IMG/VR virus record: IMGVR_UViG_3300028601_000030
Span: 15,601 to 79,600 of that record
DNA from: a virus
Taxonomy: Duplodnaviria; Caudoviricetes
Strand: one strand, 5' to 3'
Length of the DNA: 64,000 bases
The translations under genes were made by a program, and so were the position numbers. Each line of letters starts with the position of its first letter. Position 1 is the first letter of the stretch. Shown piece after piece: positions 21,630 to 63,087 of this stretch. The notes under the pieces were generated by a model, which saw only the letters and a program-made list of their open reading frames with translations, ran no database searches and had not been told where the DNA came from.

Positions 21630-21640
21630 TCTTTATCCCA

Positions 21641-21802: not shown

Positions 21803-21821
21803 AATTTATACCTTTATACCT

Positions 21822-22649: not shown

Positions 22650-22661
22650 GGGAAACTCCTA

Positions 22662-22877: not shown

Positions 22878-22887
22878 AAATCACCTT

Positions 22888-23775: not shown

Positions 23776-23957
23776 TATGAAACCTCCCCATCAATATATT
23801 TCCATACGACATTGGTTGGGTTATTATTTACACAAGTAAATAATGCACCTGTTTCCGTATTCAACCAGATAAACGGTATAAATGGAGGAATATCTTCATG
23901 CGTTGGATTTCTAGTCGCTGCATAGTGGCAGATATTTTGAGCTTCTTGTTTAAGCAT
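23775..23957 (-). CDS. Stand-alone tail adaptor-like domain, copy 1
   Basis: NPTHED..PFIWLNTETGALFTCVNNNP.NVVW; ATG 23957 overlaps the upstream TAA. Confidence 0.75.
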   Translation of the reverse strand: MLKQEAQNICHYAATRNPTHEDIPPFIPFIWLNTETGALFTCVNNNPTNVVWKYIDGEVS

Positions 23958-33098: not shown

Positions 33099-33101
33099 CT
33101 G

Positions 33102-38729: not shown

Positions 38730-38731
38730 GA

Positions 38732-39465: not shown

Positions 39466-39492
39466 TTTCTATTCTCCTAGAAGATTGAAGTT

Positions 39493-39512
39493 GGGGAGGC
39501 GAAAGCCTCCCC
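39493..39512. terminator. GC-rich hairpin after the major tail protein
   Basis: GGGGAGGC-GAAA-GCCTCCCC; weak U-tract. Confidence 0.5.
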
Positions 39513-39549
39513 ATACTATGTAACACGATCAATCAAAATAAATTGATCG

Positions 39550-40461
39550 CTAGTCGAAGGATATAATCCCCAATGGCTGCGCGTCCCAAGCGGCATTACC
39601 GCCGGATACCTCAGCGTCAGCACGTTTCGCTTCGAATGTCAGCGGAACGGCCGCAGCATCTTCTGCCTGAAGATCAATCTCAGTGGTTGCAACAGCGTTT
39701 GCACGGGGGAAGATGATGTACATGTGGTTTACACCATTGGGATATGTGTAAACTGCTTCCATACGCACGAACTTCGGTGCCGCGATACTACCGAGACCAA
39801 TAGATCCAGTATGATTGTCTGCAAAGTTACTGGACAGATTCACTACGGAGAAACGCACAATGTCGCCTGCTGCATGAGTTCCTGTAACAAAGCTGGCTGC
39901 GAGAGTCAGAGCATCGTTGATGCCATCGAAGCTGAAACCTTCTGTAGTACTAATACCAACTGCCGCATCATTCTTCATAGTGCCAAGAGAATCATGACGT
40001 ACATCGTATGCAGTATCAGAGGTAAACTCTACAGTGTACGTACCAGCTTCAATGTAATCCTGGCTTGCAACAGTGATTTTTGTCTGGTCTACAACAAGAT
40101 CGCCATTTACACTGACTACAACGTGGGCACCAGATACAGACATTGTTCCTGCACCTTCACTCGGGTCAAGACCACGAGCAATTGCCAGGTTCTTCGGCGA
40201 AAGCTCTTTGAAAGCACATTCAAGACTCGCTGTTTCACGAAGAGGTACGGTCATGTCTTCCAACAGCGGGAAACCAGACTCAAGTTTCCAGTAAGACACT
40301 TCACCAGTGTACTTGGTGTTTGCGAGAGCCCCAATTGACTGATCTGCGGTAAGGACTGAACCTACCTGAGAAATGTTTGTTGCTGAATTACCGACACGAA
40401 TCTGAGCCAGCCCCAGGGCGACTGTGCTGGTATCCTTAGTTACTGGACCTGTTCTTCCCAT
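39550..40461 (-). CDS. Major tail (tube) protein
   Basis: ALGLAQIRVG...ASLECAFKELSPKNL...VPLTFEA; canonical position. Confidence 0.8.
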   Translation of the reverse strand: MGRTGPVTKDTSTVALGLAQIRVGNSATNISQVGSVLTADQSIGALANTKYTGEVSYWKLESGFPLLEDMTVPLRETASLECAFKELSPKNLAIARGLDPSEGAGTMSVSGAHVVVSVNGDLVVDQTKITVASQDYIEAGTYTVEFTSDTAYDVRHDSLGTMKNDAAVGISTTEGFSFDGINDALTLAASFVTGTHAAGDIVRFSVVNLSSNFADNHTGSIGLGSIAAPKFVRMEAVYTYPNGVNHMYIIFPRANAVATTEIDLQAEDAAAVPLTFEAKRADAEVSGGNAAWDAQPLGIISFD

Positions 40462-48607: not shown

Positions 48608-50469
48608 TAATCTCCTATCGTCTTCTCACGGAACATTTCGCCGAAAATCATGGAACTTGAACGTTCACGAAAATCGTCAATGGCCAATTCACGTCCACCG
48701 TAAATAGCCCACGCCAACGAGAACACAGAATCGTCCTGCACCCCATATTTTTCATTCTTCTCTGGTGAACCATACCACTTTTTAACAGGATTATGGTCAA
48801 ATAGCAAGGTTTCTTCTTCGAGAAGATTGCTACTTTTTGCTCCAGGTATGCGGACTTCAGGAGTTTTGAACAATCCTTGTTGATACAAAGTATATAGCTC
48901 AGAAAAAGCGGCTTTCTGTCTATCATAAGAAGGTTGAATAGCCTCAAAGCGCATTTCTTTTTCCTCGCACCAAGAACCGAAGTCCCACATACCCCAACGC
49001 TCAGAACAGAAGGACTCCAATCCATCAAACTCGTCATGAAGTTTCTGGATATGGTGTTGTATTTCATTCAAGGTGCTGGATTCAATGTGAACTATATCAA
49101 TCAGGAAGTAAATATATTTCTTAACAGCAGAATCTTCCATATAAATTTCTGGATTGTTTTTGCTGTTAGGCAAACCCTTAGCAACCGCTGTGAGTATGGT
49201 TCTTGCTCCCTTGGTCAAATCCTGCTTCATTGGGTCAGCACGGTCAAGTCCTACGCAAATAGCAAAGTCTGTATTGTACATCTGTCCGAGCTTTTGTAGC
49301 TCGTCAAACGTACAGTGACGAGTATGCCCACTTTCAGTTGATAGTTGATATACACTTGAAAGTGGGTTAAGCGGAGACTTGATCTTCTCAACGTCGTTTT
49401 TCATGCCATTTATGCGCGAATAACCTAAATCTTCATCCATGCGCTCAATGGAATCTTCAAGCTTACCAACCTTCTGCAAAATGTTCACGACTTCAGAGTG
49501 CACACCGAGTGTGCCATGAACACCGATGTAGTGAGAGGCTTTCACCACCTCTTTTTTGAAGAACTTGCTACCAGCAACCTCCCAGATGTTTTTGAAATAC
49601 CGGTCAAATTCTGCTTGTGGGAATTTCTCACGATAAGAATCCAACTGCTCCTGGCTGTTATAAGGATGCCACATGTCTTTGTGGCTTCCTTCTGGGGAAC
49701 AGCGATAATGGAAAAACAAGTTGGGGTCTTTGTTCCTCGTGTAAGACTGGTAGAGCTTATACAGCACGTGGGATTTTTCTGATACGGTGGAGTCAATAAC
49801 ACCAAGGGCGTTGGGAATGTTACGAGTAGAACCGTCAAGCTGAACAAAGAACTTGGGGTTCTTCATGTCGAACATCTCCGAGAAAGTGTATCCGGTGATA
49901 TTCGACACGATACCAGAAAAAGATGAAATGGAGCGGATGAGAGAAACGGTCACACCTACCTTGTTCTGCAAACGAATCTCTTTCTCCTGGACATTCCGTT
50001 TGCCAACGATCCTCAGAAGGTTTGGTGAATTGAGAATGGTGTCACGCATGATGTCAAAGTGGACAAACTTGACCTGGTCTTTGCTATTTGCACCAAGCAT
50101 GATCTGTTGGCGTGGAAAATTGAAAAACTTCCACAATTGAATAAGGCAAGCAATCGCTGATTTGCCTTCACCACGAGGCCAACAAAAAACGATCAGTCTG
50201 TGTTTCAGCCGACCGTCTTTCATTTCCAATGCACGTTTCAAAACCTCACGCTGCTCACACCACATGTCCCAGAATGAACGACCTGTGATTTTTACTGGTT
50301 CACGGGACAGTTCACCGATAAGAACCCATGAGGGAATTGGTGAATCATTTTTGTACACGGGAATACGGACATTCTCCTCACACCAAGCACAAAAACCTTC
50401 ACCGCCGTCACGATAGCGTTCTATCTTGGTTCGTTTCGGTTTCTCTGCATCAGTCCTACGTTCCAACAT
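48604..50469 (-). CDS. terL: Terminase large subunit
   Basis: Walker A PRGEGKS, ANSKDQ, nuclease VGLDRA, terminal DDSVFSLAWA. Confidence 0.85.
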   Translation of the reverse strand: MLERRTDAEKPKRTKIERYRDGGEGFCAWCEENVRIPVYKNDSPIPSWVLIGELSREPVKITGRSFWDMWCEQREVLKRALEMKDGRLKHRLIVFCWPRGEGKSAIACLIQLWKFFNFPRQQIMLGANSKDQVKFVHFDIMRDTILNSPNLLRIVGKRNVQEKEIRLQNKVGVTVSLIRSISSFSGIVSNITGYTFSEMFDMKNPKFFVQLDGSTRNIPNALGVIDSTVSEKSHVLYKLYQSYTRNKDPNLFFHYRCSPEGSHKDMWHPYNSQEQLDSYREKFPQAEFDRYFKNIWEVAGSKFFKKEVVKASHYIGVHGTLGVHSEVVNILQKVGKLEDSIERMDEDLGYSRINGMKNDVEKIKSPLNPLSSVYQLSTESGHTRHCTFDELQKLGQMYNTDFAICVGLDRADPMKQDLTKGARTILTAVAKGLPNSKNNPEIYMEDSAVKKYIYFLIDIVHIESSTLNEIQHHIQKLHDEFDGLESFCSERWGMWDFGSWCEEKEMRFEAIQPSYDRQKAAFSELYTLYQQGLFKTPEVRIPGAKSSNLLEEETLLFDHNPVKKWYGSPEKNEKYGVQDDSVFSLAWAIYGGRELAIDDFRERSSSMIFGEMFREKTIGDY

Positions 50470-50471
50470 GC

Positions 50472-50984
50472 CTAGTTCTCCAACATTTCTTCATAATAAC
50501 CCAACTCACCTTTTTCTGGGTTGTGCGAAGGAGGAATGCCCCTACCCAGGTGATTGCCACCAACACCAATGTCCCTCAAGCAAGCTGAAATTTCCCGTAT
50601 GATCAAACGAATCTCTTTGAACACAGGGTGAGGTGCGAGACTGCCACGGTTCACCACCATCTTCGGAGCATCCAAAGCCACAATTTTCATCTCAATCAAC
50701 TGCGAATACAATGGTATAAGGTGCATACCAATCTTCAACATCTGCTCTTCTGAAACGGAATCAAACGATTTCAAAACGGTGTCAACCACATGTTTCTGGT
50801 AATTCTGCCGCAAAGTGCATTTCCCAGATTTATTATATGGGCAGTTATCAGCAATAGGACATTCTTCAGGATCGCAATTAGGTACAGCGTCCCAGGTAAC
50901 AAGATTCACATCGGAATCCTTCGCTTTCCCTTTGTGAATATTTATTCCCCCAATGCGTTCCTTACCGCGGGTTGTTAAATCCAT
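50472..50984 (-). CDS. terS: Terminase small subunit (by position)
   Basis: Directly upstream of terL; helical APHPVFKEIR segment. Confidence 0.6.
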   Translation of the reverse strand: MDLTTRGKERIGGINIHKGKAKDSDVNLVTWDAVPNCDPEECPIADNCPYNKSGKCTLRQNYQKHVVDTVLKSFDSVSEEQMLKIGMHLIPLYSQLIEMKIVALDAPKMVVNRGSLAPHPVFKEIRLIIREISACLRDIGVGGNHLGRGIPPSHNPEKGELGYYEEMLEN

Positions 50985-51089
50985 AACAATAATTCTCCTT
51001 TCAAGAACAAATAATGCTGTGGAGGAGGAGGATTGTCAAGGCTTTCAGCTGGTTTTCCCCAAAATAAGGGACTCGTGCGCGATTCTAAA

Positions 51090-51260
51090 GGGGGGAGGGG
51101 GGGGGGGTCTTTTCTGGTTGTATATTATTGGTATGGGTATTGATACTGGTACAGGTATGATGTGCGCGGGGAATGATTACTATTACTGGTACAGGTAAAA
51201 GACTCCCTGGTGCTGTTACTGGTACTGGTATTGGTGCTGTTACTGTTACTGGTACTACGA
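51090..51260. repeat. G6-A-G11 tract followed by iterated TACTGG(TA) motifs upstream of terS
   Basis: Poly-G 51090-51107; TACTGGTACAGGTA at 51144 and 51184; further TACTGGT copies at 51217-51256. Confidence 0.8.
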
Positions 51261-51372
51261 AAACATATGATAGTGGTATATGAATAAGAGAGGTGTTTTT
51301 CCTACGAAAAATATTGTGGTCGGGAACTAAAATCATGAGTAAGAGCTAACACTCACTAAAAAAGTCGAGTGC

Positions 51373-51401
51373 TTGACAAACTAATTCAGATGCGATATAC
51401 A
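51373..51401 (+). promoter_or_regulatory. Strong sigma70-type early promoter
   Basis: TTGACA-N17-TATACA. Confidence 0.85.
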
Positions 51402-51491
51402 GATATACAGCGCTTGTTTGTTGCGAATCACTGCGCAGCGCAGCAGACAAGCGAATCACTTAATCACTTGCGCAGTAGAGAGATTAGAGTC

Positions 51492-51995
51492 ATGAAAAAC
51501 TTATTTACAGACGAAAAATTAAACGAAGCAAAGATAGCATCTAAACAGCGCACTGCAAAAGCGAATGAGTTGAGTAATAAAACTGCGTTTAATTCGCTGA
51601 TCTACTCTAAACAGAAACAGAGCGTTAGCGAAACGGCGGTGCTTGACTTTGCGCTGATTATTGCAAGCGCGAATGCAACACAATTTCATCAATCACAGAT
51701 TCACGAACTTCTTAAGCTAGTTGATTGCAAGCGTAAGACTGTCGCGAAACATGTGCGCGATAAACAAAGCGTCTTCGCTGATTTGCTAAGCGTCGATGAA
51801 AAGAACATTTTTACTGTAGAGAATCAACAAGTGTTCTGTGACATTATGAACATGAGCGAATTTCAGCAGCAGTTGAACAAATACGCTGAAAAGCTCTACA
51901 CAGCATTCTATGACACAGAACACATGCAAGCTGTGCATGAAGAAGCTTTGAAAATGAATAAGAAAACAGCGCAGAAAAAAGCAGCTAACAGCTAA
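51492..51995 (+). CDS. Early protein of unknown function lacking Gly/Pro/Trp (167 aa)
   Basis: ATG 51492 after the promoter and a GAGA-type RBS. The track start at 51369 lies inside the promoter. Confidence 0.85.
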   Translation: MKNLFTDEKLNEAKIASKQRTAKANELSNKTAFNSLIYSKQKQSVSETAVLDFALIIASANATQFHQSQIHELLKLVDCKRKTVAKHVRDKQSVFADLLSVDEKNIFTVENQQVFCDIMNMSEFQQQLNKYAEKLYTAFYDTEHMQAVHEEALKMNKKTAQKKAANS

Positions 51996-52000
51996 GACGC

Positions 52001-52042
52001 ATAGCGCTCTACACTATAGCAGACGTGTAGAGCGCTATTTTT
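52001..52042 (+). terminator. Rho-independent terminator
   Basis: 14-bp perfect stem ATAGCGCTCTACAC/GTGTAGAGCGCTAT plus T-run. Confidence 0.8.
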
Positions 52043-52076
52043 AACATTAACAGTCTGCTAGAAAAGAGTATATAAC

Positions 52077-52259
52077 ATGACTTTACAAGTTAACGATGAA
52101 ACAAACTACAGTGCTGTACAATCGTTCTGCAAAGAGAACGAGAATCTTTTAATGTATAATGAAGATTTAGCTGAACTCTATGAAATATTCATAGACGACT
52201 ATCAAAATATTAGTTTTGAAGAATTTAAGTTTTTCATGCTGAACAAATATCTTAAATGA
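52077..52259 (+). CDS. Small acidic early protein lacking Gly/Pro/Trp (60 aa)
   Basis: AAGAG RBS; clean ORF. Confidence 0.75.
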   Translation: MTLQVNDETNYSAVQSFCKENENLLMYNEDLAELYEIFIDDYQNISFEEFKFFMLNKYLK

Positions 52260-52273
52260 CGATTTAAGCGACT

Positions 52274-52314
52274 TTTACAGCGTAGAACGATACTTTATGC
52301 GTCTACGCTGTAAA
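52274..52314. other. 13-bp perfect hairpin
   Basis: TTTACAGCGTAGA/TCTACGCTGTAAA. Confidence 0.8.
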
Positions 52315-52334
52315 GTCTCAACACAGAGCAAAGT

Positions 52335-52385
52335 AGAGCGCTAGAATTTGATTCTATGAATTGAGTTCTAGCGCTCTTTTTTTTT
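52335..52385 (+). terminator. Rho-independent terminator closing the island
   Basis: AGAGCGCTAGAA/TTCTAGCGCTCT stem followed by a long T-run. Confidence 0.85.
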
Positions 52386-52397
52386 GTTTTATGCAAG

Positions 52398-52533
52398 ATG
52401 CCTGGTTTGCGCCTGGTTGATGGATCGGACGGACGGAATGCCTGGTTTGTGCCTGGTTGATTGATCGGACGGACAGATGCCTGGTTTGTCCCTGGGTTTG
52501 CAGATGGTCGGAAGCTCCCAGGTTTGTGCCTGG
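52398..52533. repeat. About 40-bp tandem repeat array with eight CCWGG sites
   Basis: ATGCCTGGTTTGYGCCTGGTTGATKGATCGGACGGAC x2 plus degenerate copies; CCWGG at 52401, 52412, 52441, 52452, 52480, 52491, 52518 and 52529. Confidence 0.9.
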
Positions 52534-52537
52534 GTGA

Positions 52538-52699
52538 GACCAGATTAAACACTTGGTAGCCAACTCCTTCCCTATTCCTTTCCTTGACCAGATTACATAG
52601 TTGGTAGCCAACTCCTTCCCTATTCCTCGGAATAAGCCTAGATGAGACCATACAGTTGGTAGCTCCTAGGGCAGACGAGATTACACAGTTGGTAGCAAA
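52538..52699. repeat. Iterated GAC..GATTA....TTGGTAGC motif
   Basis: Four copies here, including a perfect 27-bp repeat at 52553 and 52601; a fifth copy at 53351-53378. Confidence 0.85.
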
Positions 52700-52824
52700 G
52701 TTTTTGTTGGTTTATATTATGGTATCTCAAGAGGGTCTGATATACTGTAGTCAAGTTAAAGATGAGCAGCAAAAGGTGTTTGTTGCTCGTTGGTTGTCTC
52801 AAACTCACAGGAGGTTAGGTTATT

Positions 52825-53028
52825 ATGAAAAAGGTTCAGATTCAGAAGTGCGGCACGAAATCTCGTATCTTGGTTGTTAACGGCAAGCAGGTAGGTGGCT
52901 TTTTCAACCTAGGCAACCCAAGCCATTACGACCTGCGTATTCAGGTCGGCACTCAGGTAGTTGGCTTTGTTGCTCCGAAGGTCGGCACAAAGTTTCGTCC
53001 ATACATTCTCAAATATAGGGTGGTGTAA
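52825..53028 (+). CDS. Hypothetical basic protein (67 aa)
   Basis: GGAGG upstream; extended -10 TGATATACT near 52738. Confidence 0.6.
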   Translation: MKKVQIQKCGTKSRILVVNGKQVGGFFNLGNPSHYDLRIQVGTQVVGFVAPKVGTKFRPYILKYRVV

Positions 53029-53030
53029 TT

Positions 53031-53114
53031 ATGTTGGTTGATATTCTAATAATGGTTGGTTGGGGATTTGTTTCCATCGGTCTGTGTTACTTGTTTAGGC
53101 CGAAGGATTACTAA
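53031..53114 (+). CDS. Putative 27-aa single-TM micropeptide
   Basis: MLVDILIMVGWGFVSIGLCYLFRPKDY; ATG 2 nt after the previous stop. Confidence 0.4.
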   Translation: MLVDILIMVGWGFVSIGLCYLFRPKDY

Positions 53115-54056
53115 ATAGGCAAAAGGCAGTCTAGGCCCTTCCGATGGTTGGAGCACAGCTTCATGCAGGAAGGTTGACTGTAACAAGAGGTTTCGGAGTT
53201 GATCGCCCGGAACCTCTTTTCTTGGTTCGGGGTTTCCTTTCCTTCTCCTGGTTTGTTCTCGGTTCATTCCACTGCAAGACACCAGGTTTGCTCCTGGTTC
53301 TTTCTTGTTCAGTGTACCTGGTAAACCTATCCTATTCCTATCCACAACCACAGACGAGATTACCTAGTTGGTAGCAAAATCGTGTCCATCCTTTGTTTTA
53401 GGTTAAGATTCGGGGGTTCTGTCTACGCTGAATCGGGACCAATCGTAACCTATGGTTATGGTTAAACGCAGTAGGAATCACAGTTCGCTCGTGAATGGTA
53501 AGTTGGACGGGATTTGGTGCCGTTCCACTCCTATGTGGTATGCGTTTTGTCGGATTTCGTGTATCGGGTTGGTATTAATCCCCTCCTTTTCTGTCCACTT
53601 TCTATTAGGTTCTATTCCTCGGCTTCTATTCTCTTACTTACTCTCTCGGAAAGTTCCTTACTACACGGAGAGTCCACTACACGGAGAGTTCTACTACTAC
53701 CTCGGATTGTTACTTCTATGGTTGGTCGGTTTCTTTCTACTATGGAAGTTTGTTTCTACAATGGTTGGTTGGTTGGTTGGTTTCTTTCTACAATGGATTT
53801 TTCTTGGCAATTCTCTGATTCTTCGGTGGTTTTTGATTTCTTGGTTTTTATTTCTTGGTTCTCCGAGTTCGGTCCATTTTCTCAATTTCGTGGTTGGTTA
53901 GTTTTTTTTTGGGAATTTCTTATTTATGGCTTTATTTTATTTTGTGGTTTTTTCTGCGGTTTATATACGGATGTGCTATACTCATAATATGTCGATACTT
54001 TATCTTGCGTGTACTTCTGCGCTTTCAGCTTTTATCTTAACAAGGGAGGTTCTATC

Positions 54057-54416
54057 ATGAGCAAAGCAAGAATTGGTTTAACATTCAATTCTGATCGGTT
54101 GCCTGGGAAGGTTGTTGAGTCGTGGTGGCAGGTTCACACTGACTATGACGGCACTGAGTACAAGTTGCAGACACGTCTTCGGGTTGGGTATACAACTACT
54201 GGCAAGTTATTTCGTAAGACGGATTTCATTTTGATCATTGGTTCTTTGGGTTGGGATTATTACAACATGGTTTCTGCTCATGTCTTGGAACATGGCACAC
54301 ATTTGATGGAAACTAATGTCGGTTGGGTTTGTCTTTCTTGTCTCACGTCTGACTGCATTAGGTACTCAGAGAAGACCGGCATTCGTGAATGCACACGTTG
54401 TGGGGCAGCTAAATAG
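54057..54416 (+). CDS. Hypothetical early protein with C-terminal CxxC..CxxC
   Basis: GGGAGG RBS; extended -10 TGCTATACT near 53974. Confidence 0.7.
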   Translation: MSKARIGLTFNSDRLPGKVVESWWQVHTDYDGTEYKLQTRLRVGYTTTGKLFRKTDFILIIGSLGWDYYNMVSAHVLEHGTHLMETNVGWVCLSCLTSDCIRYSEKTGIRECTRCGAAK

Positions 54417-54554
54417 GGAGGTTTCGTTTTAGAAATAGGGTATCATAATCGGCATGTGGCTGCTGGATTTGCTAAATGGTTCTTTTTGTCGGTAAATTCA
54501 GCAGTTGCTGGCTATTTTGTTCGTTTTTGGTCGTGAATTATTTTTAGGTTCAAA

Positions 54555-54583
54555 TTGCTATTTTTAGCTGGCTGTGATATGCT
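54555..54583 (+). promoter_or_regulatory. Early promoter
   Basis: TTGCTA-N17-TATGCT. Confidence 0.65.
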
Positions 54584-54679
54584 TATATGTAAGTTATCGT
54601 ATGCGCAGTTCAGCGTGTGCGGTTTGTCTCTCAAATTGAAAGGGTTAATTATGTACAAGGCTCACAGTAAGGAGGCATC

Positions 54680-54937
54680 ATGAAAGTTATAGGGTGCGGG
54701 TTTGATTTTCATTTTAAGGGCGAACATGTAGCGTTTCAGGTCGCATTTGACTTGAGACGGCACGATGTTCCTTTGTCGTATTATTTTCAAGAGTTGGAGT
54801 TCCAGATATTCGAGACGTTGCGCGAGAATCTTGGTGGTTCTGATGCGTTTTATCTGACCCGGACTGGCACAAGGTTTCGCATTCACTTTGGTGCAATGCG
54901 AATTTACTCGGAACCAATCACTATTTGGGAGGAATGA
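54680..54937 (+). CDS. Hypothetical protein
   Basis: AGGAGG RBS. Confidence 0.7.
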   Translation: MKVIGCGFDFHFKGEHVAFQVAFDLRRHDVPLSYYFQELEFQIFETLRENLGGSDAFYLTRTGTRFRIHFGAMRIYSEPITIWEE

Positions 54938-55353
54938 TTATGCCTACGGTGGAAGATGTTGTTGCATACTTGGAGAAGAATTACGATAAGGATCAATACA
55001 TAGCTGCTGATTTCTGGACGGATGAAGATGTGCATGAACTGGCTTGGGATGAAGGTATTCAGTTGAACACGGCGCAAGTTCATCTTGTGTTGGACAAAAT
55101 CCATCACAACATAGATGCTTTGGATGGATTGCAATACTCTGTGGTTATGCAAACAGGAGATTCTATGCTGTACACGGTAGAAGATATTTCGGAGAAGGAT
55201 TTTGCTGAAGCTTCGGCTATGTGTCTGCGAGGTGAGGAATTGTCACTGACGTTGGCTCTTTGCAAGGTTCTTTCGAAAAAACACGGCAGTGAATATGTGT
55301 TTGGTGAGCCGGATGTGTATTGCTTTGTGCCGAAGGAGTTTGTAAAGGAATGA
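54934..55353 (+). CDS. Hypothetical acidic protein
   Basis: Overlapping start; GGAGG. Confidence 0.7.
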   Translation: MIMPTVEDVVAYLEKNYDKDQYIAADFWTDEDVHELAWDEGIQLNTAQVHLVLDKIHHNIDALDGLQYSVVMQTGDSMLYTVEDISEKDFAEASAMCLRGEELSLTLALCKVLSKKHGSEYVFGEPDVYCFVPKEFVKE

Positions 55354-55655
55354 TGTTTCTCTATACGGATTTAAAAGTCGGTGACTTGGATTTGACATCT
55401 ACTGCGGTTTATCGGGAAAACGATGAAATATCCAAGGTGTTTGATGGGTTGATAGGGTCGGTAATCAACAAGAGTGGTGGCAAATTCGACTTCGGCATTG
55501 GCTTCTCTACGGAAAACAAGCAAAATTTTGTTCATGTGTTGGCACTAGATCCTTCGGATCACAATGAGGTGTTGGGTGAAGCTACCGTAGACATGATAGA
55601 TGTCAATGAATGGTTAAAACGTCTTGCAGATAGGAAAAACCATGATCGTATATGA
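55350..55655 (+). CDS. Hypothetical protein
   Basis: ATGA overlap with the upstream stop. Confidence 0.65.
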   Translation: MMFLYTDLKVGDLDLTSTAVYRENDEISKVFDGLIGSVINKSGGKFDFGIGFSTENKQNFVHVLALDPSDHNEVLGEATVDMIDVNEWLKRLADRKNHDRI

Positions 55656-55872
55656 TTTAGTTAAAGACGCGGAGATCGAGTTCCATAACGTAGGGGGTAC
55701 GCAAGCCTACGTTAGTAGGAGAATTAACGAGGAGCTCGTCAAAATGATGCGGGAAAGGGATTCAAATGTTATTGATGTGCGTCGTTATGAAAAAGAGATG
55801 GGTAGTTTACACTTCGGATTGTCATTTAATGGCAAGTATCAAGGAGATATTCTGTTTATAAGGAGGACGTAA
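55642..55872 (+). CDS. Hypothetical protein
   Basis: AGGA RBS; in operon. Confidence 0.6.
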   Translation: MIVYDLVKDAEIEFHNVGGTQAYVSRRINEELVKMMRERDSNVIDVRRYEKEMGSLHFGLSFNGKYQGDILFIRRT

Positions 55873-56127
55873 ATGGCTTTGCTTGAAAGACGGGAAAAAC
55901 AGAGAAAGCAATCCGAGATTGAATATCCTAGGGGAGGACACGTTGCGGATCCACCGGAAGATTGTCCATGGAGAAAGAAGTTTGAGCCAGGAGGTGCTTA
56001 CTGGACAGAAACTTGTTTCTGTGGATACTACTGTGATGAACAGTGTGGACAATTTCGGGCACATGTACACAAGCACAAGATGGCTAGAGCGGAAGCATTC
56101 AAACGGGAAAAAAGAGAGGAGAAGTAG
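55873..56127 (+). CDS. Hypothetical Cys-rich protein
   Basis: AGGAGG RBS; C..CFCGYYC...C. Confidence 0.7.
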   Translation: MALLERREKQRKQSEIEYPRGGHVADPPEDCPWRKKFEPGGAYWTETCFCGYYCDEQCGQFRAHVHKHKMARAEAFKREKREEK

Positions 56128-56128
56128 T

Positions 56129-56500
56129 ATGAAAAAGGTTGACATGCTTTGTTTTTGGTGTCGAGAAGTTAAAGGTGAAGCTGAAGTGGAAGACGGTTTT
56201 GGGGACGGTCCCGCATTCGCGGACTATATTCCCTGCGACCACTGTGCAATGAAGATGGTTAAAGGTATCACTTTGGTTGCTGTCGATGAAGAACCCCAGT
56301 TTGAAGGTCAAGACCCTTTCGGTACAGCTCGCTACCCAATAGGTTCATGGGCAGTTATTGATGAATCTTGGGTAAAAGATGTGTTCGAGGATGGTGAATT
56401 TAAAGATCATGTGTTGGAAAAACGCATCATGCTCATGGATAAAGAAGAACTGGAAGATCTCTTATTATCGGCGCGTGAGCGAACCTCACCGGTATCCTAA
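56129..56500 (+). CDS. Hypothetical protein with CxxC pairs
   Basis: GAGGAG RBS; CFWC and CDHC. Confidence 0.7.
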   Translation: MKKVDMLCFWCREVKGEAEVEDGFGDGPAFADYIPCDHCAMKMVKGITLVAVDEEPQFEGQDPFGTARYPIGSWAVIDESWVKDVFEDGEFKDHVLEKRIMLMDKEELEDLLLSARERTSPVS

Positions 56501-56558
56501 TGGTACAGTAAGATTTATCGGTAAAAGCTCAGGCCTCAATTTATTTTGAGGCTTTTGC

Positions 56559-56587
56559 TTGTGCTTATAAATCGGATACGATATGCT
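56559..56587 (+). promoter_or_regulatory. Early promoter
   Basis: TTGTGC-N17-TATGCT. Confidence 0.6.
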
Positions 56588-56658
56588 TCTAATTAAGCAC
56601 AACAGTGTATCGAGCGCACTTCAGCGATCGGTGCTAATCACTCAAACAGGAGGTAAAA

Positions 56659-56905
56659 ATGAGAAAAGGTATGACTTCGCTAGTCGGCACATCTAAAGGT
56701 ATTGTTCTCGCACAAAAAATTGGTTCATCCTACTATTAAAACTGACGACCATCTATCTTATGTCTTGATTGAGACGCCGGACGGTGAGTATGTCGTATGG
56801 CTGCACAATGCTGAACACGGCTCTATTCACGATGGCTTTTCAAATGGTCACTATTTTCAAACTTTGGTCGAAGCCTTTGCATTTTTCGACAAGGAAGGAC
56901 TGTAG
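56659..56905 (+). pseudogene. Small gene apparently frameshifted at an A6 run
   Basis: AGGAGG plus ATG 56659 gives only 26 aa; removing one A at 56714-56719 joins it to the 56702-56905 ORF. Confidence 0.5.
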
Positions 56906-56907
56906 TC

Positions 56908-57126
56908 ATGGAAAAATATCTTCCCCAATTTAATCGTAAGCGACACGGCAGTTTGTATGATCGTGGCGGAGCTGATTCTTATTATCGGCGCGTGAGCGAA
57001 CCTCACTGGTATCCTAATGGTACAGGAAATAAACCGAAAATCACAGACTTAACTGAAGATGAAATAGCGGAATACAATCAAGGCTATTTCGACAACGAAT
57101 CTGACGACTCTCATAAGGAATGGTGA
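56908..57126 (+). CDS. Hypothetical protein
   Basis: YDRGGADSYY, YNQGY motifs. Confidence 0.75.
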   Translation: MEKYLPQFNRKRHGSLYDRGGADSYYRRVSEPHWYPNGTGNKPKITDLTEDEIAEYNQGYFDNESDDSHKEW

Positions 57127-57131
57127 TAATC

Positions 57132-57383
57132 ATGAAATACTTGGAAGATCATTACTCAGGTGAAATAAAGGTTAAAGAATCTCCGTTGTGGTATCATGAG
57201 CAAGGTTTGATGCAAACTGCAACTGGTTATGGCAATAAGTTAAAAACTACGTTCATGGTATTTGTAGATGGGCGTTGGCGTCGAGTTTATTGTCGGATAT
57301 TCAGTAATATCGGCAGTTTATACATCATCTGGAAAAAGGAAGAATACATCATAAAATATGATCATACGTTGACAGGAGAATAA
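57132..57383 (+). CDS. Hypothetical protein
   Basis: TATGYG.KL.T...V..DGRWRRVY. Confidence 0.75.
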   Translation: MKYLEDHYSGEIKVKESPLWYHEQGLMQTATGYGNKLKTTFMVFVDGRWRRVYCRIFSNIGSLYIIWKKEEYIIKYDHTLTGE

Positions 57384-57385
57384 AC

Positions 57386-57613
57386 ATGGCTAGAACTGAC
57401 TTGGAAATACATGATGTTGAACGTAGGGAAGACTTAGAAGGTAGTGACCACAAATTTGCAGAATATTTAAGGCAACATAATTGGAACAGAAAGGCTGAGT
57501 TTATAGGCGATGCGTCATTATTTTTAAAACCCAATAAGGAACAAATCGCAATTGCGGTTTATGATAACAAGGAATGTACATACAAGGTTTACACACCAAA
57601 GGAGGCAAAATGA
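57386..57613 (+). CDS. Hypothetical protein
   Basis: AGGAG RBS. Confidence 0.7.
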   Translation: MARTDLEIHDVERREDLEGSDHKFAEYLRQHNWNRKAEFIGDASLFLKPNKEQIAIAVYDNKECTYKVYTPKEAK

Positions 57614-57921
57614 ACACATCATTTGAGGACATTCGGTCATTCTATGAATCAGCTTGCATGGATATGGCAAGTAATTCGGTAGATAACTACGAAGATGGGT
57701 TTTTTGACGAAAGTGCGGACATCATTGAAAAAGCAGGTTCTGATCGTTGTAGCAGGGTAGAAGCTGTGATGGATGATTTGTTTAATGATGTTGGAGTAGC
57801 AACTGACTTGATAGGAGATCAACTCAATGCGGCAGAAAACAAGGATGAAGTTCTTCAGAAGATGGTTGAAGCTGAATCCCCATATCGGGAAGTGGCTGAG
57901 CGTCTTATCTTTAAGGGGTAA
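57610..57921 (+). CDS. Hypothetical acidic protein
   Basis: GGAGG RBS; ATGA-type overlap. Confidence 0.7.
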   Translation: MNTSFEDIRSFYESACMDMASNSVDNYEDGFFDESADIIEKAGSDRCSRVEAVMDDLFNDVGVATDLIGDQLNAAENKDEVLQKMVEAESPYREVAERLIFKG

Positions 57922-57924
57922 ATT

Positions 57925-58314
57925 ATGGTTCTTTATTCAAACATTGCGTTGGAAGCGGAAACAACTTTCGTTTATGAGGGAAGTCGGTTACTTGAAATTC
58001 ACAACAACACAACTCTGGAAGGCAAGAAACTGCCGGATGTCTTTGTCTTCTTTGAAAAACGGAACAGGAAATCTATTGTCTCAATCTCGGATTTGGATGA
58101 AACAAAAGGCACACCAGATTTTGTCTTTGGTCTGTTCGTAGGCAGCGACTTCAAAGCAACCAAGGGCTGTCGTTTCGAAGGTCAGACGAAAACCAAAGAT
58201 GGTATCGTGAAACTTGGAATATTTAATCCTGATGGCGAAATTGAGGTTAATGGCAAACGCTTGGTAATTGTTCAAGGTCTCGGTTGGTTAGAAAAATCCG
58301 CTGAGGCGATATAA
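57925..58314 (+). CDS. Hypothetical protein
   Basis: In operon; AGGGG RBS. Confidence 0.65.
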   Translation: MVLYSNIALEAETTFVYEGSRLLEIHNNTTLEGKKLPDVFVFFEKRNRKSIVSISDLDETKGTPDFVFGLFVGSDFKATKGCRFEGQTKTKDGIVKLGIFNPDGEIEVNGKRLVIVQGLGWLEKSAEAI

Positions 58315-58332
58315 ATTTTTTATGGTATTAGC

Positions 58333-58361
58333 TTGCATCTGATATACAGATGCGCTATTCT
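58333..58361 (+). promoter_or_regulatory. Early promoter
   Basis: TTGCAT-N17-TATTCT; spacer shares CAGATGCG with the 51373 promoter. Confidence 0.7.
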
Positions 58362-58444
58362 TTACACGTAGCGCAAAGAGCGCATTTATTCAGTGAGCAT
58401 AATTGGTATGCTCGGTACACAATCTCAAGAAAAGGAGAAGGATT

Positions 58445-59083
58445 ATGACCACGACTCAGGCTAACGCAACAGCGACTACAAAGGCTAACGCATCTGCCCG
58501 TCGGAAATCAACTCGCACAGCGGCTGAGAAAGATACGGCGGCTACACAGACAACTGCAAAGAAAGCGGCTCCGAAGAAGGAAGCTCCGAAGAAGGATCTG
58601 AATCTTACGGTTTCTGAAGAAAAGCCGGAAGAAAAGTTCCAGTCAATGTGTGGATTTGAGTATGACCCCGCACCGGCAAGTTCTTGCAACCAGACTTGCA
58701 GTAAAGATAACCCAGACGCATACAAGGCATGTCTGGACAACTTCGAAAAGAATGGCAGCGCAAGGGTGAAAAAGGCTGCTACAAAGAAGAAGGCAACTCG
58801 TGGCAAGAATGTTTGGGGGCACTTGAATGGCTGTCAGGGATCATTGATTGATGATGTATTCTTGAACGGTGGAGCGCATACTCTTGAGGAAATTATGAAA
58901 GCTGCTGGCGCTACACGCGCTCGGACACTTTCGCATCTGAAACATCTTGTTGATGTTTGGAAAGTGGATCTTCGTATCACGGAAGACAAGAAATACTTTA
59001 TCACTGGTTATGGTTCTGAAGGTCTTGAAGGCAAAAAGACTAACGGTGTGAAGGTCAGTGAAGACGCTTCAGAAGAGAAATAG
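58445..59083 (+). CDS. Lys/Ala/Thr-rich protein with C-terminal winged-helix-like domain
   Basis: KKAAPKKEAPKK tracts; TLEEIMKAAGATRARTLSHLKHL. Confidence 0.65.
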   Translation: MTTTQANATATTKANASARRKSTRTAAEKDTAATQTTAKKAAPKKEAPKKDLNLTVSEEKPEEKFQSMCGFEYDPAPASSCNQTCSKDNPDAYKACLDNFEKNGSARVKKAATKKKATRGKNVWGHLNGCQGSLIDDVFLNGGAHTLEEIMKAAGATRARTLSHLKHLVDVWKVDLRITEDKKYFITGYGSEGLEGKKTNGVKVSEDASEEK

Positions 59084-59085
59084 CC

Positions 59086-59217
59086 ATGATTACTCTGGAA
59101 TTCAATGCTAGGCACAACTGCAAAGATGGCATTTCACAATCTGATATAATCTGCTGTGCAAAGGTGGCTGCACAGCAGATTGCAGAAGACTTCATAAAAG
59201 CCACTAAAGGAGATTGA
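59086..59217 (+). CDS. Small hypothetical protein (43 aa; not in ORF track)
   Basis: Fills the gap between two genes in the operon. Confidence 0.45.
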   Translation: MITLEFNARHNCKDGISQSDIICCAKVAAQQIAEDFIKATKGD

Positions 59218-59218
59218 A

Positions 59219-59890
59219 ATGGCAGAACAAAAGATACTGGACAGGCTGCAAAAGCTTCTCAGGCTTGCCGCTGATAATCCCGATTCCCCGGAATCACAGC
59301 TTGCTGGTGAACGTGCCGCGGAACTCATGGCTAAGTACAACGTCGGTCTGGAAGATGTCAAAGAAGATGGCACTATTGATTCTTCGAACATTCTGGAATC
59401 AGACGTTGTTTGCACGGTGAAACATCATCAGGCATGGGAGACTGATTTGGCTTCTGCATTGTGCGAGGCATTCGACTGTCAACGGATTTTGACTAATGCA
59501 GATAATGGTGCAAAGGTTAGACGGTTCATTGGTACGAAGTCTGATGTGGCTGTGTTGGTCAACTTCTACAAGTATCTTCGGCTTCGCATCGCAAAAGAGG
59601 CTGAGCATAAATATCGGCTACAGCGTGATCAGAAGATGTTTGGAATTGGCGTTGCTCGCGAACTTCGACCGAGACTGGTTGAAATGTATAAGCGAAAGCA
59701 GGAAGTTTCTTCGGAAGCTACAAACGCGCTCGTGGTCTGCAAGAAGGACGCAGTGGCAAACTTTCTGTCGTCTCAGTACCCCAGTATGAAAATGAAATCT
59801 TATTCAATGGGTTCTGGTTCGATGGCAGCTTATAGGGATGGTCTAGTTGTAGGCAAATCAATGTCAATCAATCAACAAGTAGGAGGATAA
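59219..59890 (+). CDS. DUF2786-containing protein
   Basis: KILDRLQKLLRLA...ESQLAGERAAELMAKYNV. Confidence 0.75.
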   Translation: MAEQKILDRLQKLLRLAADNPDSPESQLAGERAAELMAKYNVGLEDVKEDGTIDSSNILESDVVCTVKHHQAWETDLASALCEAFDCQRILTNADNGAKVRRFIGTKSDVAVLVNFYKYLRLRIAKEAEHKYRLQRDQKMFGIGVARELRPRLVEMYKRKQEVSSEATNALVVCKKDAVANFLSSQYPSMKMKSYSMGSGSMAAYRDGLVVGKSMSINQQVGG

Positions 59891-59892
59891 TC

Positions 59893-60783
59893 ATGACTGG
59901 TCAAGAAGAACTTCAGAAAATCCAAGAGATAGAAGAGGTGAAGGTTAAAATTCGTGAGAAGTTTCCCGAAGTAGTGTGGCCTGAGCCAATACTTGAACCG
60001 ATCTTCTTCGGAAGACTTGACAAAACATTGGTTGAGAATCGCAAGTTGGTTCTTGATGCAAATACCGGCGCACAATTTGACATCGTATCGGATCATTACG
60101 ATTTAATACCACATGAAGTTGCAACATACAATTTGCTCAAGGCTATTCCTGAAGAGTTTGGTGAGCCGGAGCTAAAATTTCACATGTGGCAAGACGGCGC
60201 GCGTTTCAGGGTAGAGGCGTACTTCCCCGATGTTGGGCAGTTCGATGTGAAAATAGGTGACCCTGTTCGTCCGCGCATCATTCAGACAAACTCACTTGAT
60301 AGGAGTCAGCACTACGGACTTGATTTCGGTGCTGAGGAACTTGTCTGTTCAAACGGTCTGATTGCTTTCAAGTCAAGAGTCAGCACTCGTAGGCGGCATA
60401 TCTTTGGTGCTGAGGAAGTCAGCTCCATTTCAGAAAATCTGAAGAAGGAAATGGAAAACTTCAGTGACCAAATGGATCTGTGGAAACAATGGGCGGAGAC
60501 AAGTGTTGGTGTTCTTGAAGAAATGGAAGTTGACTTGGAAAATCTTCCTTTCTCGGAAGCTGAACGTGACAAGGTTCTTCAACTGCCGTTGATGAATCAC
60601 AACAAGGAGGCTACACTCAGCAGTTTGCTGAAGAAAGGCACAGCTACAATTTGGGATATTAACTCCGCTTGTACGCAATATGCCCGACACGAAGTAAATT
60701 CAGCGCAACGGTCATTTGACTTGGAGCGCAAAATGGCACAATTCTCAAACAAACTTTGGGGGAAATACAAAGGTGTTGCATAG
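59893..60783 (+). CDS. DUF932/DUF945-like protein
   Basis: VSDHY..IPH, GDPV...NS.D....G...LVCSNGLI. Confidence 0.7.
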   Translation: MTGQEELQKIQEIEEVKVKIREKFPEVVWPEPILEPIFFGRLDKTLVENRKLVLDANTGAQFDIVSDHYDLIPHEVATYNLLKAIPEEFGEPELKFHMWQDGARFRVEAYFPDVGQFDVKIGDPVRPRIIQTNSLDRSQHYGLDFGAEELVCSNGLIAFKSRVSTRRRHIFGAEEVSSISENLKKEMENFSDQMDLWKQWAETSVGVLEEMEVDLENLPFSEAERDKVLQLPLMNHNKEATLSSLLKKGTATIWDINSACTQYARHEVNSAQRSFDLERKMAQFSNKLWGKYKGVA

Positions 60784-60829
60784 TCACGTAAACGAGGGGG
60801 AGCAATCCCCCTTTAAGGACATTGATTTT

Positions 60830-61213
60830 ATGATGGATCAACTCAAAAAATATTTAACAGCGGCTATCGCTCGCAAGGTCTATCACAAGAACTTGCGCTC
60901 GGTAACTGTATTCGACCGAAACGAAAAACCGAAATTCCATTTTATCTATGACATTGAATATGAACAGGATATCAAATGGTGGTACTTTGAACAGAGAGGT
61001 TGGACTGTGAAAGAACGGTCGAATATCGCGGAACTGGACACACTGCCCTTGCAGCCCGTATATGTGACAAGTGAGTTTTGGACATGTGACTGTATGGAAC
61101 ATTTTGTTCACCACAAAACTCTTTTCACTTGTCCTAGATGTAAACGTACTGTTGCGGATCATGAACAGTGTCTTGATACTCCCACTTACTTAAAAGGAGG
61201 CCCTAATGCCTGA
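60830..61213 (+). CDS. Hypothetical protein with CDC/CPRC
   Basis: ATG 60830 after hairpin GAGGGGG/CCCCCTT. Confidence 0.65.
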   Translation: MMDQLKKYLTAAIARKVYHKNLRSVTVFDRNEKPKFHFIYDIEYEQDIKWWYFEQRGWTVKERSNIAELDTLPLQPVYVTSEFWTCDCMEHFVHHKTLFTCPRCKRTVADHEQCLDTPTYLKGGPNA

Positions 61214-61571
61214 TAAAACTGATACAATCGTTGTGGAAGAAGTAGCTGTACGTTTGGCTTTGCTCAAAACTCAGGAACGTAGACTGAAAGAGGAAATAAA
61301 AGAAGCCCAACAGGAACTTCTCGATGCTGGCGTTGCTTGCAACCTACAAACAAAATACGGTAAATTGGCATACACTGTTCGGGAAAACTACGCTACGTCG
61401 GATCAAGCTGGTCTTATCAAGTTCATGGGACAGAAGGCATTTAATGCTCATGCGACTATCAGCAAAACTGGTGTTGAGAAAGCTATCGGTGACGTTGGCT
61501 TTCGTGACGCGCTTGATAAGGGTCTTATGCAGGTCAAAAACGTTTCTGAATATTTCATGCTGAAAAAGTAG
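61206..61571 (+). CDS. Hypothetical protein (121 aa)
   Basis: AGGAGG RBS; N-terminal coiled coil. Confidence 0.75.
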   Translation: MPDKTDTIVVEEVAVRLALLKTQERRLKEEIKEAQQELLDAGVACNLQTKYGKLAYTVRENYATSDQAGLIKFMGQKAFNAHATISKTGVEKAIGDVGFRDALDKGLMQVKNVSEYFMLKK

Positions 61572-61580
61572 CATAGACAC

Positions 61581-61640
61581 GACAGCACACAGTGCGGCTC
61601 GCTGCGGAATTTGCTCTGTGTGCTGTCTTTTTTCTTTTTT
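61581..61640 (+). terminator. Rho-independent terminator
   Basis: GACAGCACACAG/CTGTGTGCTGTC stem plus T-runs. Confidence 0.8.
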
Positions 61641-61704
61641 GTTACTCTGCTATGCTTTACATAATTTGAAACGCTCAGAAGCGAAATTACAGCATAGGTG
61701 ATTT

Positions 61705-63087
61705 ATGATTACATTGGAAGTATTAGACCCTGTATGGGTTAGAACTGACCACAAGGGCTTTCTGCACCTTAACAGTGCTTTGTCGTATGAACACAAATAC
61801 TGGAGAAAAATAGGTCACAGAAAAGAACAGGTCAGTGAGCGCCACTATATGATTGAGCAACGTGGCAAAGACGAATTTTATTTCTTATCAGGACTGCTTG
61901 ACCGAGCAGAAAGACATCTTGAACGTAATGATTTGGAATATGAAATCATTGATAATTTACCAGATGTAGAATTTGATGAACCGCATCTTGACGGTGTTAC
62001 CTTCATGAAACACCAAAAGAAACTGATTAAATGCGGAATTGAAATAGGTAGAGGGTTGATTGTAGCTCCTACTGGTACTGGTAAATCATACATTATCGCT
62101 GGGATATCATCTGCTTTCGTAAGATTAGATAAAATACTTTTCTTGGTACACACAACTGATTTGGTTGCACAGATGAAAGCGGACTTTGTTAAATTCTTCG
62201 GTGAAGAAAATGTCGGTGAATGGTCAGGTGCTCGGAAAAACATTAATACAATTACTGTGGCTACACACCAGTCATTCGTAAAAGTTTGCGACCAGCACGT
62301 AGATACGTTTGGTGTTGTGTTGATTGATGAAGGTCATCATGTATCAGACATAAACGGCAACTACGGCAAGATTCTTCAACGAAGTGCGGCACATACTAAA
62401 CTTGGATTCACTGCTACAAAAGGCGATCAGAACAAAACTCGTTGGGCGGCAGAAGCATTGCTTGGTCCTGTGATTGGTGAATACAAAATACAAGATGCCC
62501 AAAAGGACAACGTCCTAACAAAACCAGAAATACACATCTACACAGTCACAAGTGGTGTTGGGTATGAAAATGTCCTAGAAGATTATCCAGAAAAATATCA
62601 TTTTGGTATCATAGATAATTTCCCACGCAATAGGACGATTGCGAAAAAAGCTATAGAGTGCGCGAAGAAAGGGGAAACTACTCTGGTAACAATCAAGAAT
62701 ATTGAACATGGACACATTCTGCAGGAGTTGTTTGCTGATTATGGATATCATGTTCCGTTTGTTTATGGTGAATCGTCTTCGGCAGAACGTGATGCTGTTA
62801 AAAATGGACTGAAAGATGGTTCACTTAAACTAGCAATTACATCGGTAATTTTCGTCGAAGGTATTGATATACCGGTACTAAACACAGTTATCAATGCAGC
62901 CGCTGGACGTTCGTCTATTCAGACGGTTCAACGTATTGGTAGAGCTTTGCGTAAGGCAAAAGGAAAATCGGGTGCATTGCTTATTGACTTTTATGACAAA
63001 ACTATTGGTTCTCTTGAACGGCAATCAAAAGCACGAATCGACATCTACAAATCACGTGGCTGGAAAGTTATCAGAAAGAAGGGATGA
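61705..63087 (+). CDS. SF2 DExH helicase (UvsW/T5 D10-like)
   Basis: APTGTGKS, DEGHH, FTAT, EGIDIP, QRIGRALR. Confidence 0.92.
   Translation: MITLEVLDPVWVRTDHKGFLHLNSALSYEHKYWRKIGHRKEQVSERHYMIEQRGKDEFYFLSGLLDRAERHLERNDLEYEIIDNLPDVEFDEPHLDGVTFMKHQKKLIKCGIEIGRGLIVAPTGTGKSYIIAGISSAFVRLDKILFLVHTTDLVAQMKADFVKFFGEENVGEWSGARKNINTITVATHQSFVKVCDQHVDTFGVVLIDEGHHVSDINGNYGKILQRSAAHTKLGFTATKGDQNKTRWAAEALLGPVIGEYKIQDAQKDNVLTKPEIHIYTVTSGVGYENVLEDYPEKYHFGIIDNFPRNRTIAKKAIECAKKGETTLVTIKNIEHGHILQELFADYGYHVPFVYGESSSAERDAVKNGLKDGSLKLAITSVIFVEGIDIPVLNTVINAAAGRSSIQTVQRIGRALRKAKGKSGALLIDFYDKTIGSLERQSKARIDIYKSRGWKVIRKKG

Follow-up and report, generated by a model that had tools for sequence, protein, structure and literature searches.

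A GG/CC-free operon between two genome arms

The DNA considered here is a 64,000-nt window of a 79,600-base viral contig (IMG/VR record IMGVR_UViG_3300028601_000030, Caudoviricetes); coordinates refer to this window unless marked as contig positions. A self-contained transcription unit on the plus strand (51325..52400), hereafter the island, is almost free of GG and CC dinucleotides. It lies between a leftward packaging arm and a rightward early arm and is therefore the first transcription unit of the early arm, presumably with early expression. Its 1076 bp (A389 T282 G211 C194; 37.6% G+C) contain no CC and only two GG, against a mononucleotide expectation of 41 GG and 35 CC (approximately 76 together). 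The two GG lie at 51635 and 51638. The preliminary description of this locus had given exactly these counts and had placed both GG at codon junctions within ACG GCG GTG; its hand estimate had been approximately 60–75 expected occurrences. The effect is stronger than first stated.

No other part of the contig resembles the island in this respect. A sliding-window analysis (500-bp windows) gave an observed/expected ratio (O/E) for GG plus CC of 0.98 ± 0.19 outside the island, with a minimum of 0.51, and the contig-wide ratios of GG (1.01) and CC (0.97) indicated no genome-wide depletion. The two longest GG/CC-free gaps of the whole contig (763 and 312 bp) both fell within the island, and the third longest measured 91 bp. 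The boundaries were as sharp and the flanks as GG-rich as originally described, with 62 GG/CC across 400 bp on the left side and 67 across 500 bp on the right. The composition is not an artefact, since it recurred in JGI, ENA and Logan assemblies made independently. The strain contig L094 (99.4% identical) reads ACT GCG CTT ATC at the site of the two GG and has neither GG nor CC across the 927 bp of the island that it contains; the two GG are a strain-specific patch.

The exclusion extended to every part of the unit, as the preliminary description had proposed for its promoter, leader, ribosome-binding sites, open reading frames (ORF1 and ORF2) and hairpin stems. The three non-coding parts contained no GG/CC (approximately 30 expected), and the codon junctions of ORF1 and ORF2 contained two (approximately 21 expected). 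The codons GCC, ACC, TCC, CGG and AGG, all used freely by the gene for the terminase large subunit (TerL), were never used in the island ORFs. Stems and ribosome-binding sites were made from GC/CG and GA steps. The GC dinucleotide reached 2.05 times and CG 1.31 times expectation, AG/CT was mildly raised, and G+C content was slightly below the 41% with which it was compared. Because non-coding DNA, codon junctions and synonymous codons all obey the rule, the exclusion acts on DNA and not on amino acids; avoidance of Gly, Pro and Trp at the amino-acid or tRNA level is ruled out by the same evidence.

Within the island, a predicted sigma-70-like promoter on the plus strand (TTGACA 51373–51378, 17-nt spacer, TATACA 51396–51401) is overlapped by a leader element, AAAGTCGAGTGCTT (51361–51374, plus strand), which is conserved in seven islands of the clade A described below. 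The arrangement TTGACA-N17-TATACA was retained in G000 and L095 despite an insertion between the promoter and the leader motif. Collection scans with the leader motif AAMAGTCGAGTGCTT, seeking more islands and contig ends, gave only chance matches among the matches listed. ORF1 (51492..51995, plus strand) encodes a basic protein of 167 aa with a Lys-rich tail, and ORF2 (52077..52259, plus strand) an acidic protein of 60 aa with a net charge of −8; neither contains Gly, Pro or Trp. After ORF1 comes an attenuator- or terminator-like element (52001..52043, plus strand), a GCGC-rich hairpin followed by T5 whose stem consists of GC/CG steps only; it was read from the sequence and is absent from the consensus scan list. 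A strong intrinsic terminator (52335..52386, plus strand) with a 20-bp stem and T9 is followed 14 nt later by the end of the island.

The left flank (51085..51324) comprises a G6-A-G11 tract (51090–51108), four GGTA/TACTGG-type repeats (51130–51254; family D5) and a boundary motif, AAATATTGTGGTCGGG (51309–51324), the final G of which belongs to the last GG ahead of the island. This motif was kept in G000, L095, L003, L006, L099 and L010, and every island that we found begins directly after a G-run. The contig L096 starts 2 nt inside the boundary. To the right follows a non-coding, GG/CC-dense repeat zone of 1.6 kb (52398..54056) without credible genes, in which at least eight repeat families (D1–D4, D6–D9) were recognised. 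It includes six copies of CCTGGTTTGnGCCTGGTTGAT (eight CCWGG in 133 bp), five GAyyAGATTAcAnAGTTGGTAGC iterons and TGGTTGG repeats. The TTGGTAGC iterons and CCWGG arrays (including CCTGG) also occur to the right of the islands in L003, L006, L010, L018 and L021. An Rfam scan of the island and its flanks returned a sub-threshold chance match only and no family for the repeat zone. DnaA boxes were not enriched, with one near-match in the repeat zone and 27 window-wide (19 ± 4 expected).

The last gene of the leftward arm (50472..50984, minus strand; 170 aa) occupies the position of the small terminase gene (terS), directly upstream of TerL (48604–50469; phrog_9/phrog_2, terminase large subunit). 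It had no family match of its own in Pfam or PHROGs, and its homologs stand at the same position in the four other long relatives (G001–G004). Beyond TerL, the leftward arm carries portal, protease, capsid and tail genes and a tape measure of 1874 aa. The rightward early arm (54057..63084, plus strand) begins with small early genes and continues into replication genes (primase, DnaB-type helicase, DNA polymerase, clamp, clamp loader, ligase, UvsX-like recombinase) and 7-deazaguanine modification genes. Neither the DNA of the region nor TerL had a match in the cultured-phage collection, and the lineage is uncultured.

Several further compositional features were observed in the window. The next-longest GG/CC-free runs (50–90 bp) clustered in the early arm (53969–54044, 54570–54621, 56574–56630, 58324–58405 and 61532–61697), where they overlie promoter-like TGnTAT(A/G)CT elements and GCGC..TTCAGC hairpin leaders. 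Cumulative GC skew had its minimum at the terS/island junction (window 48000–52000) and its maximum near 16 kb; this pattern tracks gene orientation but could also mark an origin beside the iteron zone. GC-dinucleotide-free stretches of 300–560 bp occurred in three paralogous repeat genes (window 21400–24650; contig 37000–40250).

Related islands and their recoded proteins

TerL relatives were encoded by 63 viral contigs, and equivalent islands were present in at least 12 related contigs. Relatives whose TerL is only 44–71% identical bear strict islands of their own (0.9–1.5 kb), likewise placed between terS and the early genes. The GG/CC-free stretch upstream of terS measured 1462 bp in L003, 1357 bp in L006, 1146 bp in L018, 1056 bp in L021, 1114 bp in G003, 1081 bp in L095, 923 bp in L097 and 1003 bp in L099, and in G001 it consisted of stretches of 1050, 310 and 149 bp. 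Those of L004, L050, L053, L094, L096 and L098 were cut at contig edges. The island of L010 was leaky; all of its exceptions were GGG/CCC runs, two of which sit 9 nt upstream of both ORF starts, the position of ribosome-binding sites.

On a quick maximum-likelihood TerL tree, islands were distributed over at least three clades with island-free lineages in between. In clade A, all eight assessable members carry an island; clade B consists of L018, L021 and G003, and clade C of G001 and L053. The trait was clustered on the tree (none of 500 shuffles as low), yet approximately six changes were needed. In the three clade B contigs, the 70 nt ahead of each island share the element GGGAAAAA..TGGACAGGTC..ATCGCAT..TTTTGC..AGATA..GGGGG, which ends in the island-starting G-run and differs from the clade A boundary motif.

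Between 20% and 24% of point substitutions (approximately 22%) would make a GG or CC. Pairs of islands nevertheless differed at 330–470 aligned positions with none of the differences creating GG/CC (neutral P 1e-34 to 1e-53). The island is thus under strong, sustained purifying selection on both strands, and it is neither an artefact nor a recent acquisition.

The rule has reshaped the encoded proteins. Island proteins lack Gly, Pro and Trp, with one or two such residues in leaky islands only, and a recurring architecture combines a basic protein of 150–200 aa with a small acidic protein whose net charge ranges from −6 to −10; a small acidic gene also comes last in other islands. Among 1.8 billion proteins, the ORF1 family had 20 representatives at 50% identity, of which the nearer members lack Gly, Pro and Trp and the distant members have a normal composition (for example, normal TTPLGS...AGLGLAEG versus island NKTAFNS...ALIIASAN). 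L006, L097 and L099 each hold both versions of ORF1, an island copy and a normal copy just past the repeat zone. G001 has a different island protein with a normal paralog approximately 7 kb along the early arm, and the small acidic island protein of L018 has a normal homolog outside the island of L021. Because normal-composition paralogs or homologs stand outside the islands, the island genes look like recoded duplicates of ordinary early genes.

Sequence profiles of ORF1 reached no Pfam family above threshold, and the best PDB profile had an E-value of 0.4; neither ORF1 nor ORF2 matched a PHROG or Pfam family at meaningful E-values, and ORF2 had no informative Pfam, PHROG or Atlas match. The AlphaFold model of ORF1 (pLDDT 81.7, core residues 28–141 above 90) was most similar to winged helices of MarR/PadR, ORC/Cdc6 and JetB (Z 5–6.4), although no Foldseek E-value was better than 0.1. 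The best-ranking structures were almost all winged-helix domains, a moderate but consistent signal, and the model suggests a winged-helix-like DNA-binding fold.

Alternatively, a CC-specific deaminase or the like might erode early-exposed CC/GG, or the cassette might have come recently from a GG-poor source, and the lower G+C content and mildly raised AG/CT of the island are in line with such a mutational origin. However, GC and CG are enriched and not eroded, the ORFs are intact, conserved Gly/Pro positions were replaced and not kept, the boundaries are sharp, and the state persists across protein identities of 27–34% and several clades. A mutational origin is disfavoured, and we consider it very improbable.

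The 7-deazaguanine pathway and possible explanations

Outside the window, the same contig encodes a 7-deazaguanine pathway. The genes for preQ0 synthesis comprise FolE (PF01227, 4e-46, with an intein), QueD (PF01242, 6e-33), the radical SAM enzyme QueE and QueC (PF06508, 4e-21), and they are accompanied by a gene for DpdA (contig 12971–13843, with L066:12971–13840 matched; phrog_887, 8.7e-42). FolE (contig 9302–10933, L066) is split by a LAGLIDADG intein; next to it stand an extra radical-SAM/SPASM enzyme (10933–11928) and a QueC fused to a phosphatase/polynucleotide kinase-like domain (11995–12978). The extra enzyme and the fusion, both absent from G001–G004, hint at a further-tailored 7-deazaguanine, to judge from the gene content. 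DpdA itself is present in all four of these relatives. A tblastn search collected 164 phage DpdA genes, and the present one was at most 43% identical to any cultured one; by DpdA similarity, G002 and G004 pair at 51% and G003 stands apart, in a comparison of five genomes only.

The contexts of DpdA described in cultured phages are short, namely GA in Pseudomonas phage iggy (PMC10484667) and GA plus GGC in CAjan (PMC7544227); the two papers are silent on motif-free regions. The record of iggy (MN029011) nevertheless has a GA/TC-poor zone at 59500–60628 and 1–870 (L092/L093). Its record end showed the genome minimum of GA/TC, 22 against 101 expected over 830 bp (O/E 0.22; genome 0.79 ± 0.14), with no other class strongly depleted (next lowest 0.73) and GG/CC enriched (1.51). 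This DNA is non-coding and contains G9 tracts and CCAGG/GGTAG repeats resembling the flanks of the present island. The word avoided in iggy is thus the motif of its own DpdA, which is the best available support for GG as the DpdA context in our lineage. A stretch of Shewanella phage S0112 (MK675901, 21251–21850; L341), with GA/TC at 22 against 75 per 600 bp inside an unannotated repeat-rich zone of 1.9 kb, may be the same kind of region.

Our leading explanation, which we hold tentatively, is that the island is an immediate-early operon that the phage keeps out of reach of its own GG-context modification, and that it may sit at a terminal repeat or leading end. The DpdA transglycosylase would swap guanine for a 7-deazaguanine derivative in GG context (other DpdAs act at GA or GGC), and the island would be the only part of the virion DNA without the modified base. 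Host RNA polymerase could transcribe such an unmodified cassette immediately, and defences against 7-deazaguanine DNA (Dag glycosylases, END nucleases, type IV nucleases) would find no target in it; nor would it contain a 2-nt protospacer-adjacent motif (PAM). Genes recruited into it would be recoded without Gly, Pro and Trp, with a normal paralog sometimes kept outside. The island would probably form the terminal repeat or leading end or be situated there, with a repeat zone beyond it like that at the border of the first-step (FST) and second-step transfer (SST) DNA of T5. One of the two models in the preliminary description, modification of G or C in GG/CC context, gained from the FolE-QueD-QueE-QueC set and DpdA on the contig, from the 2–3-nt contexts of DpdAs and from the GA depletion in iggy, and is unproven.

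That GG/CC is missing from both strands and from the whole coding sequence points to an agent that acts on double-stranded DNA, by recognition or damage, at each such site. Described defences would fit: hosts, notably in Vibrio integrons, carry many glycosylases that excise 7-deazaguanines (bioRxiv 10.1101/2025.10.29.685425), and END nucleases, which sense hypermodified DNA, are opposed by early inhibitors that phages encode (PMC12191111). With a little less confidence still, we propose a 'safe-mode' boot cassette: a terminal or immediate-early operon of 1–1.5 kb that would lack the phage's own modification context (predicted to be GG), have no PAM, be the sole unmodified virion DNA and be immune to modification-directed immunity, with early genes duplicated into it and recoded. 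If this is true, the avoided dinucleotide reads out DpdA specificity directly from sequence.

Several points weigh against a modification-free cassette. We infer the GG context of this DpdA, by analogy with iggy, as well as the early timing and terminal position of the island and its role against defences. The iggy analogue is a single case, non-coding and depleted to an O/E of 0.22 instead of motif-free, and the position of its mapped direct terminal repeat (DTR) in the record is not stated. Strict kilobase-scale islands were lacking in 12 cultured DpdA phages, G002 and G004 carry DpdA yet have no island, and among the long genomes compared no gene or family covaried with island presence. GGG/CCC is tolerated at ribosome-binding sites in some islands (L010). 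ORF1, as far as the model goes, looks like a DNA-binding regulator and not an inhibitor. Finally, there was no phage RNA polymerase among the ten large proteins scanned, so modified DNA elsewhere must be transcribable.

In searches for similar exclusions, islands of another di- or trinucleotide in G002 and G004 amounted to weak CCA/TGG-free stretches of approximately twice the expected maximum and were unconvincing, and a GG/CC dip in Acinetobacter phage HD01 was trivial, falling in a low-complexity Ala/Lys/Glu-rich protein. In G001 (L072), the region 33,100–37,400 contains kilobases lacking CG (2094 bp), CCC/GGG, GCC/GGC and CGC/GCG (3.6–4.3 kb), and AAA/TTT (1270 bp).

The result for RNA polymerase also bears on whether legibility alone might explain the island. 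Modified bases could hinder transcription or regulator binding, and the first-firing operon would then be kept unmodified for speed, with no defence role. Bulky major-groove modifications are reported to inhibit bacterial RNA polymerase mainly at initiation. GG/CC was scarcer in the intergenic DNA of the early arm (O/E 0.76) than in the other arms (0.99 and 1.44; small numbers), and the GG/CC-free runs of 50–90 bp over the TGnTAT(A/G)CT sites are of the same tendency. However, because the ten large proteins scanned included no phage enzyme, host RNA polymerase must read the GG-rich rest of the genome, which makes a simple elongation block unlikely and disfavours it as the sole cause; it likewise weakens the reason first offered for the modification model, that the first genes have to remain legible to the host enzyme. 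For legibility, a clean promoter and template strand should suffice, but the exclusion covers both strands and the whole of the coding sequence, and the conserved upstream element of clade B contains GG. We regard legibility without a defence role as quite unlikely.

The other model of the preliminary description was a stealth leading end that exposes no type I-F (CC) or NGG-Cas9 PAM. As a rival to our explanation, it would be independent of modification and would work as in T5, where the first segment enters alone and its products neutralise host nucleases, so that targets matter only within that segment. From a PAM one would expect a 2-nt motif to be avoided symmetrically, and the architecture fits as well, since the first early unit gives way to a 1.6-kb repeat zone comparable to the FST/SST border of T5. 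In T5-like phages, host restriction–modification, CRISPR and Ssp act only on targets in the FST region (PMC10644984), which puts FST under selection to be target-free. The small acidic proteins and the helix-turn-helix (HTH)-like protein of the islands resemble anti-defence operons. In contrast, the absence of genome-wide GG/CC depletion and of DnaA-box enrichment speaks against this model, as does the lack of homology to T5 pre-early genes or to named Pfam/PHROGs families (no library specific to anti-CRISPR proteins was searched). It leaves unexplained why the record end of iggy avoids exactly its DpdA motif with GG/CC enriched, and it assumes the host CRISPR type, the entry order and the termini. 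The model is unproven and appears unlikely, though it is the strongest of the rivals.

Alternatively, the island might itself be a DTR, re-synthesised at packaging and not reliably modified by a post-replicative DpdA. Leaving out the DpdA context would then avoid a patchy or hemimodified repeat, or interference with terminase cutting, end resection and annealing. The island size of 0.9–1.5 kb is near that of the mapped 1091-bp DTR of iggy, whose record end is GA-depleted; the island adjoins terS, boundary motifs are conserved, and the boundary coincides with the start of one contig. However, seven contigs continue across it, and harm from hemimodification is hard to square with the removal of all Gly, Pro and Trp codons. 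The direct terminal repeats recorded by IMG/VR for G001 (144 bp) and G002 (99 bp) are assembly overlaps, uninformative on termini. We consider this explanation improbable. It shares with the modification-free cassette and the stealth leading end a terminal or leading-end position of the island, which all three presume. Causes other than those discussed here retain a small share of the probability.

Novelty and comparison with known systems

In full-text literature searches, neither a dinucleotide-free operon nor recoded paralogs free of Gly, Pro and Trp turned up for phages, in agreement with the initial impression that no such module had been described. To our knowledge, there is no earlier case of a dinucleotide being absolutely excluded from a functional multi-gene operon and dictating protein composition. 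The observation is solid; the mechanisms discussed above are proposals. The islands provide natural proteins of 150–200 aa without Gly, Pro and Trp, with normal paralogs as built-in controls, and show how far a constraint at the DNA level can override selection at the protein level. If the link to DpdA is true, the motif specificity of uncultured modification enzymes would be readable from genome sequence alone, a counter-strategy to the recently described defences against modified phage DNA would be revealed, and staged genome entry could be modelled in testable form for phages other than the T5 group. In practical terms, the islands suggest rules for designing expression cassettes that withstand defences, for the engineering of phages in laboratory strains, and they make up a naturally occurring data set of protein folds that bear the loss of Gly and Pro.

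Each of the closest known systems shares one aspect with the island and fails on others. Like restriction-site and PAM avoidance, the island would reflect the selective removal of short DNA words recognised by defences. The cases of such avoidance that we know of are statistical, genome-wide and partial, whereas the exclusion described here is absolute, confined to approximately 1 kb, absent from the rest of the genome and strong enough to reshape proteins. Anti-CRISPR (acr) and anti-CRISPR-associated (aca) operons and the anti-defence leading regions of conjugative plasmids place small acidic proteins and a DNA-binding protein of HTH type behind a strong early promoter, at a position where first expression is expected. 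The island has the same layout, with a predicted promoter, acidic and HTH-like proteins and an early position; its proteins had no match in Pfam, PHROGs or Atlas, and no Acr-specific library was searched. We know of no acr-aca or leading-region locus that excludes a dinucleotide.

The phage DpdA systems (CAjan, iggy and 9g; Queuovirinae) share the set of FolE, QueD, QueE, QueC and DpdA with the present contig, have contexts of 2–3 nt and, in the record end of iggy, include a region depleted in its own motif. They differ in that no kilobase-scale, strictly motif-free coding island was found or described in those phages. The FST region of T5 is similar in that it is expressed first and is separated from the early genes by a long non-coding zone rich in repeats. 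It is approximately 10 kb long and situated in a mapped terminal repeat, with the genes A1, A2 and dmp, and with DnaA boxes in the stop region, and it lacks only particular sites; Pfam and PHROGs searches revealed no homologs of these pre-early genes in ORF1 or ORF2. In contrast, the island is a unit of 1–1.5 kb, for which two-step entry is only presumed, and it excludes a whole dinucleotide.

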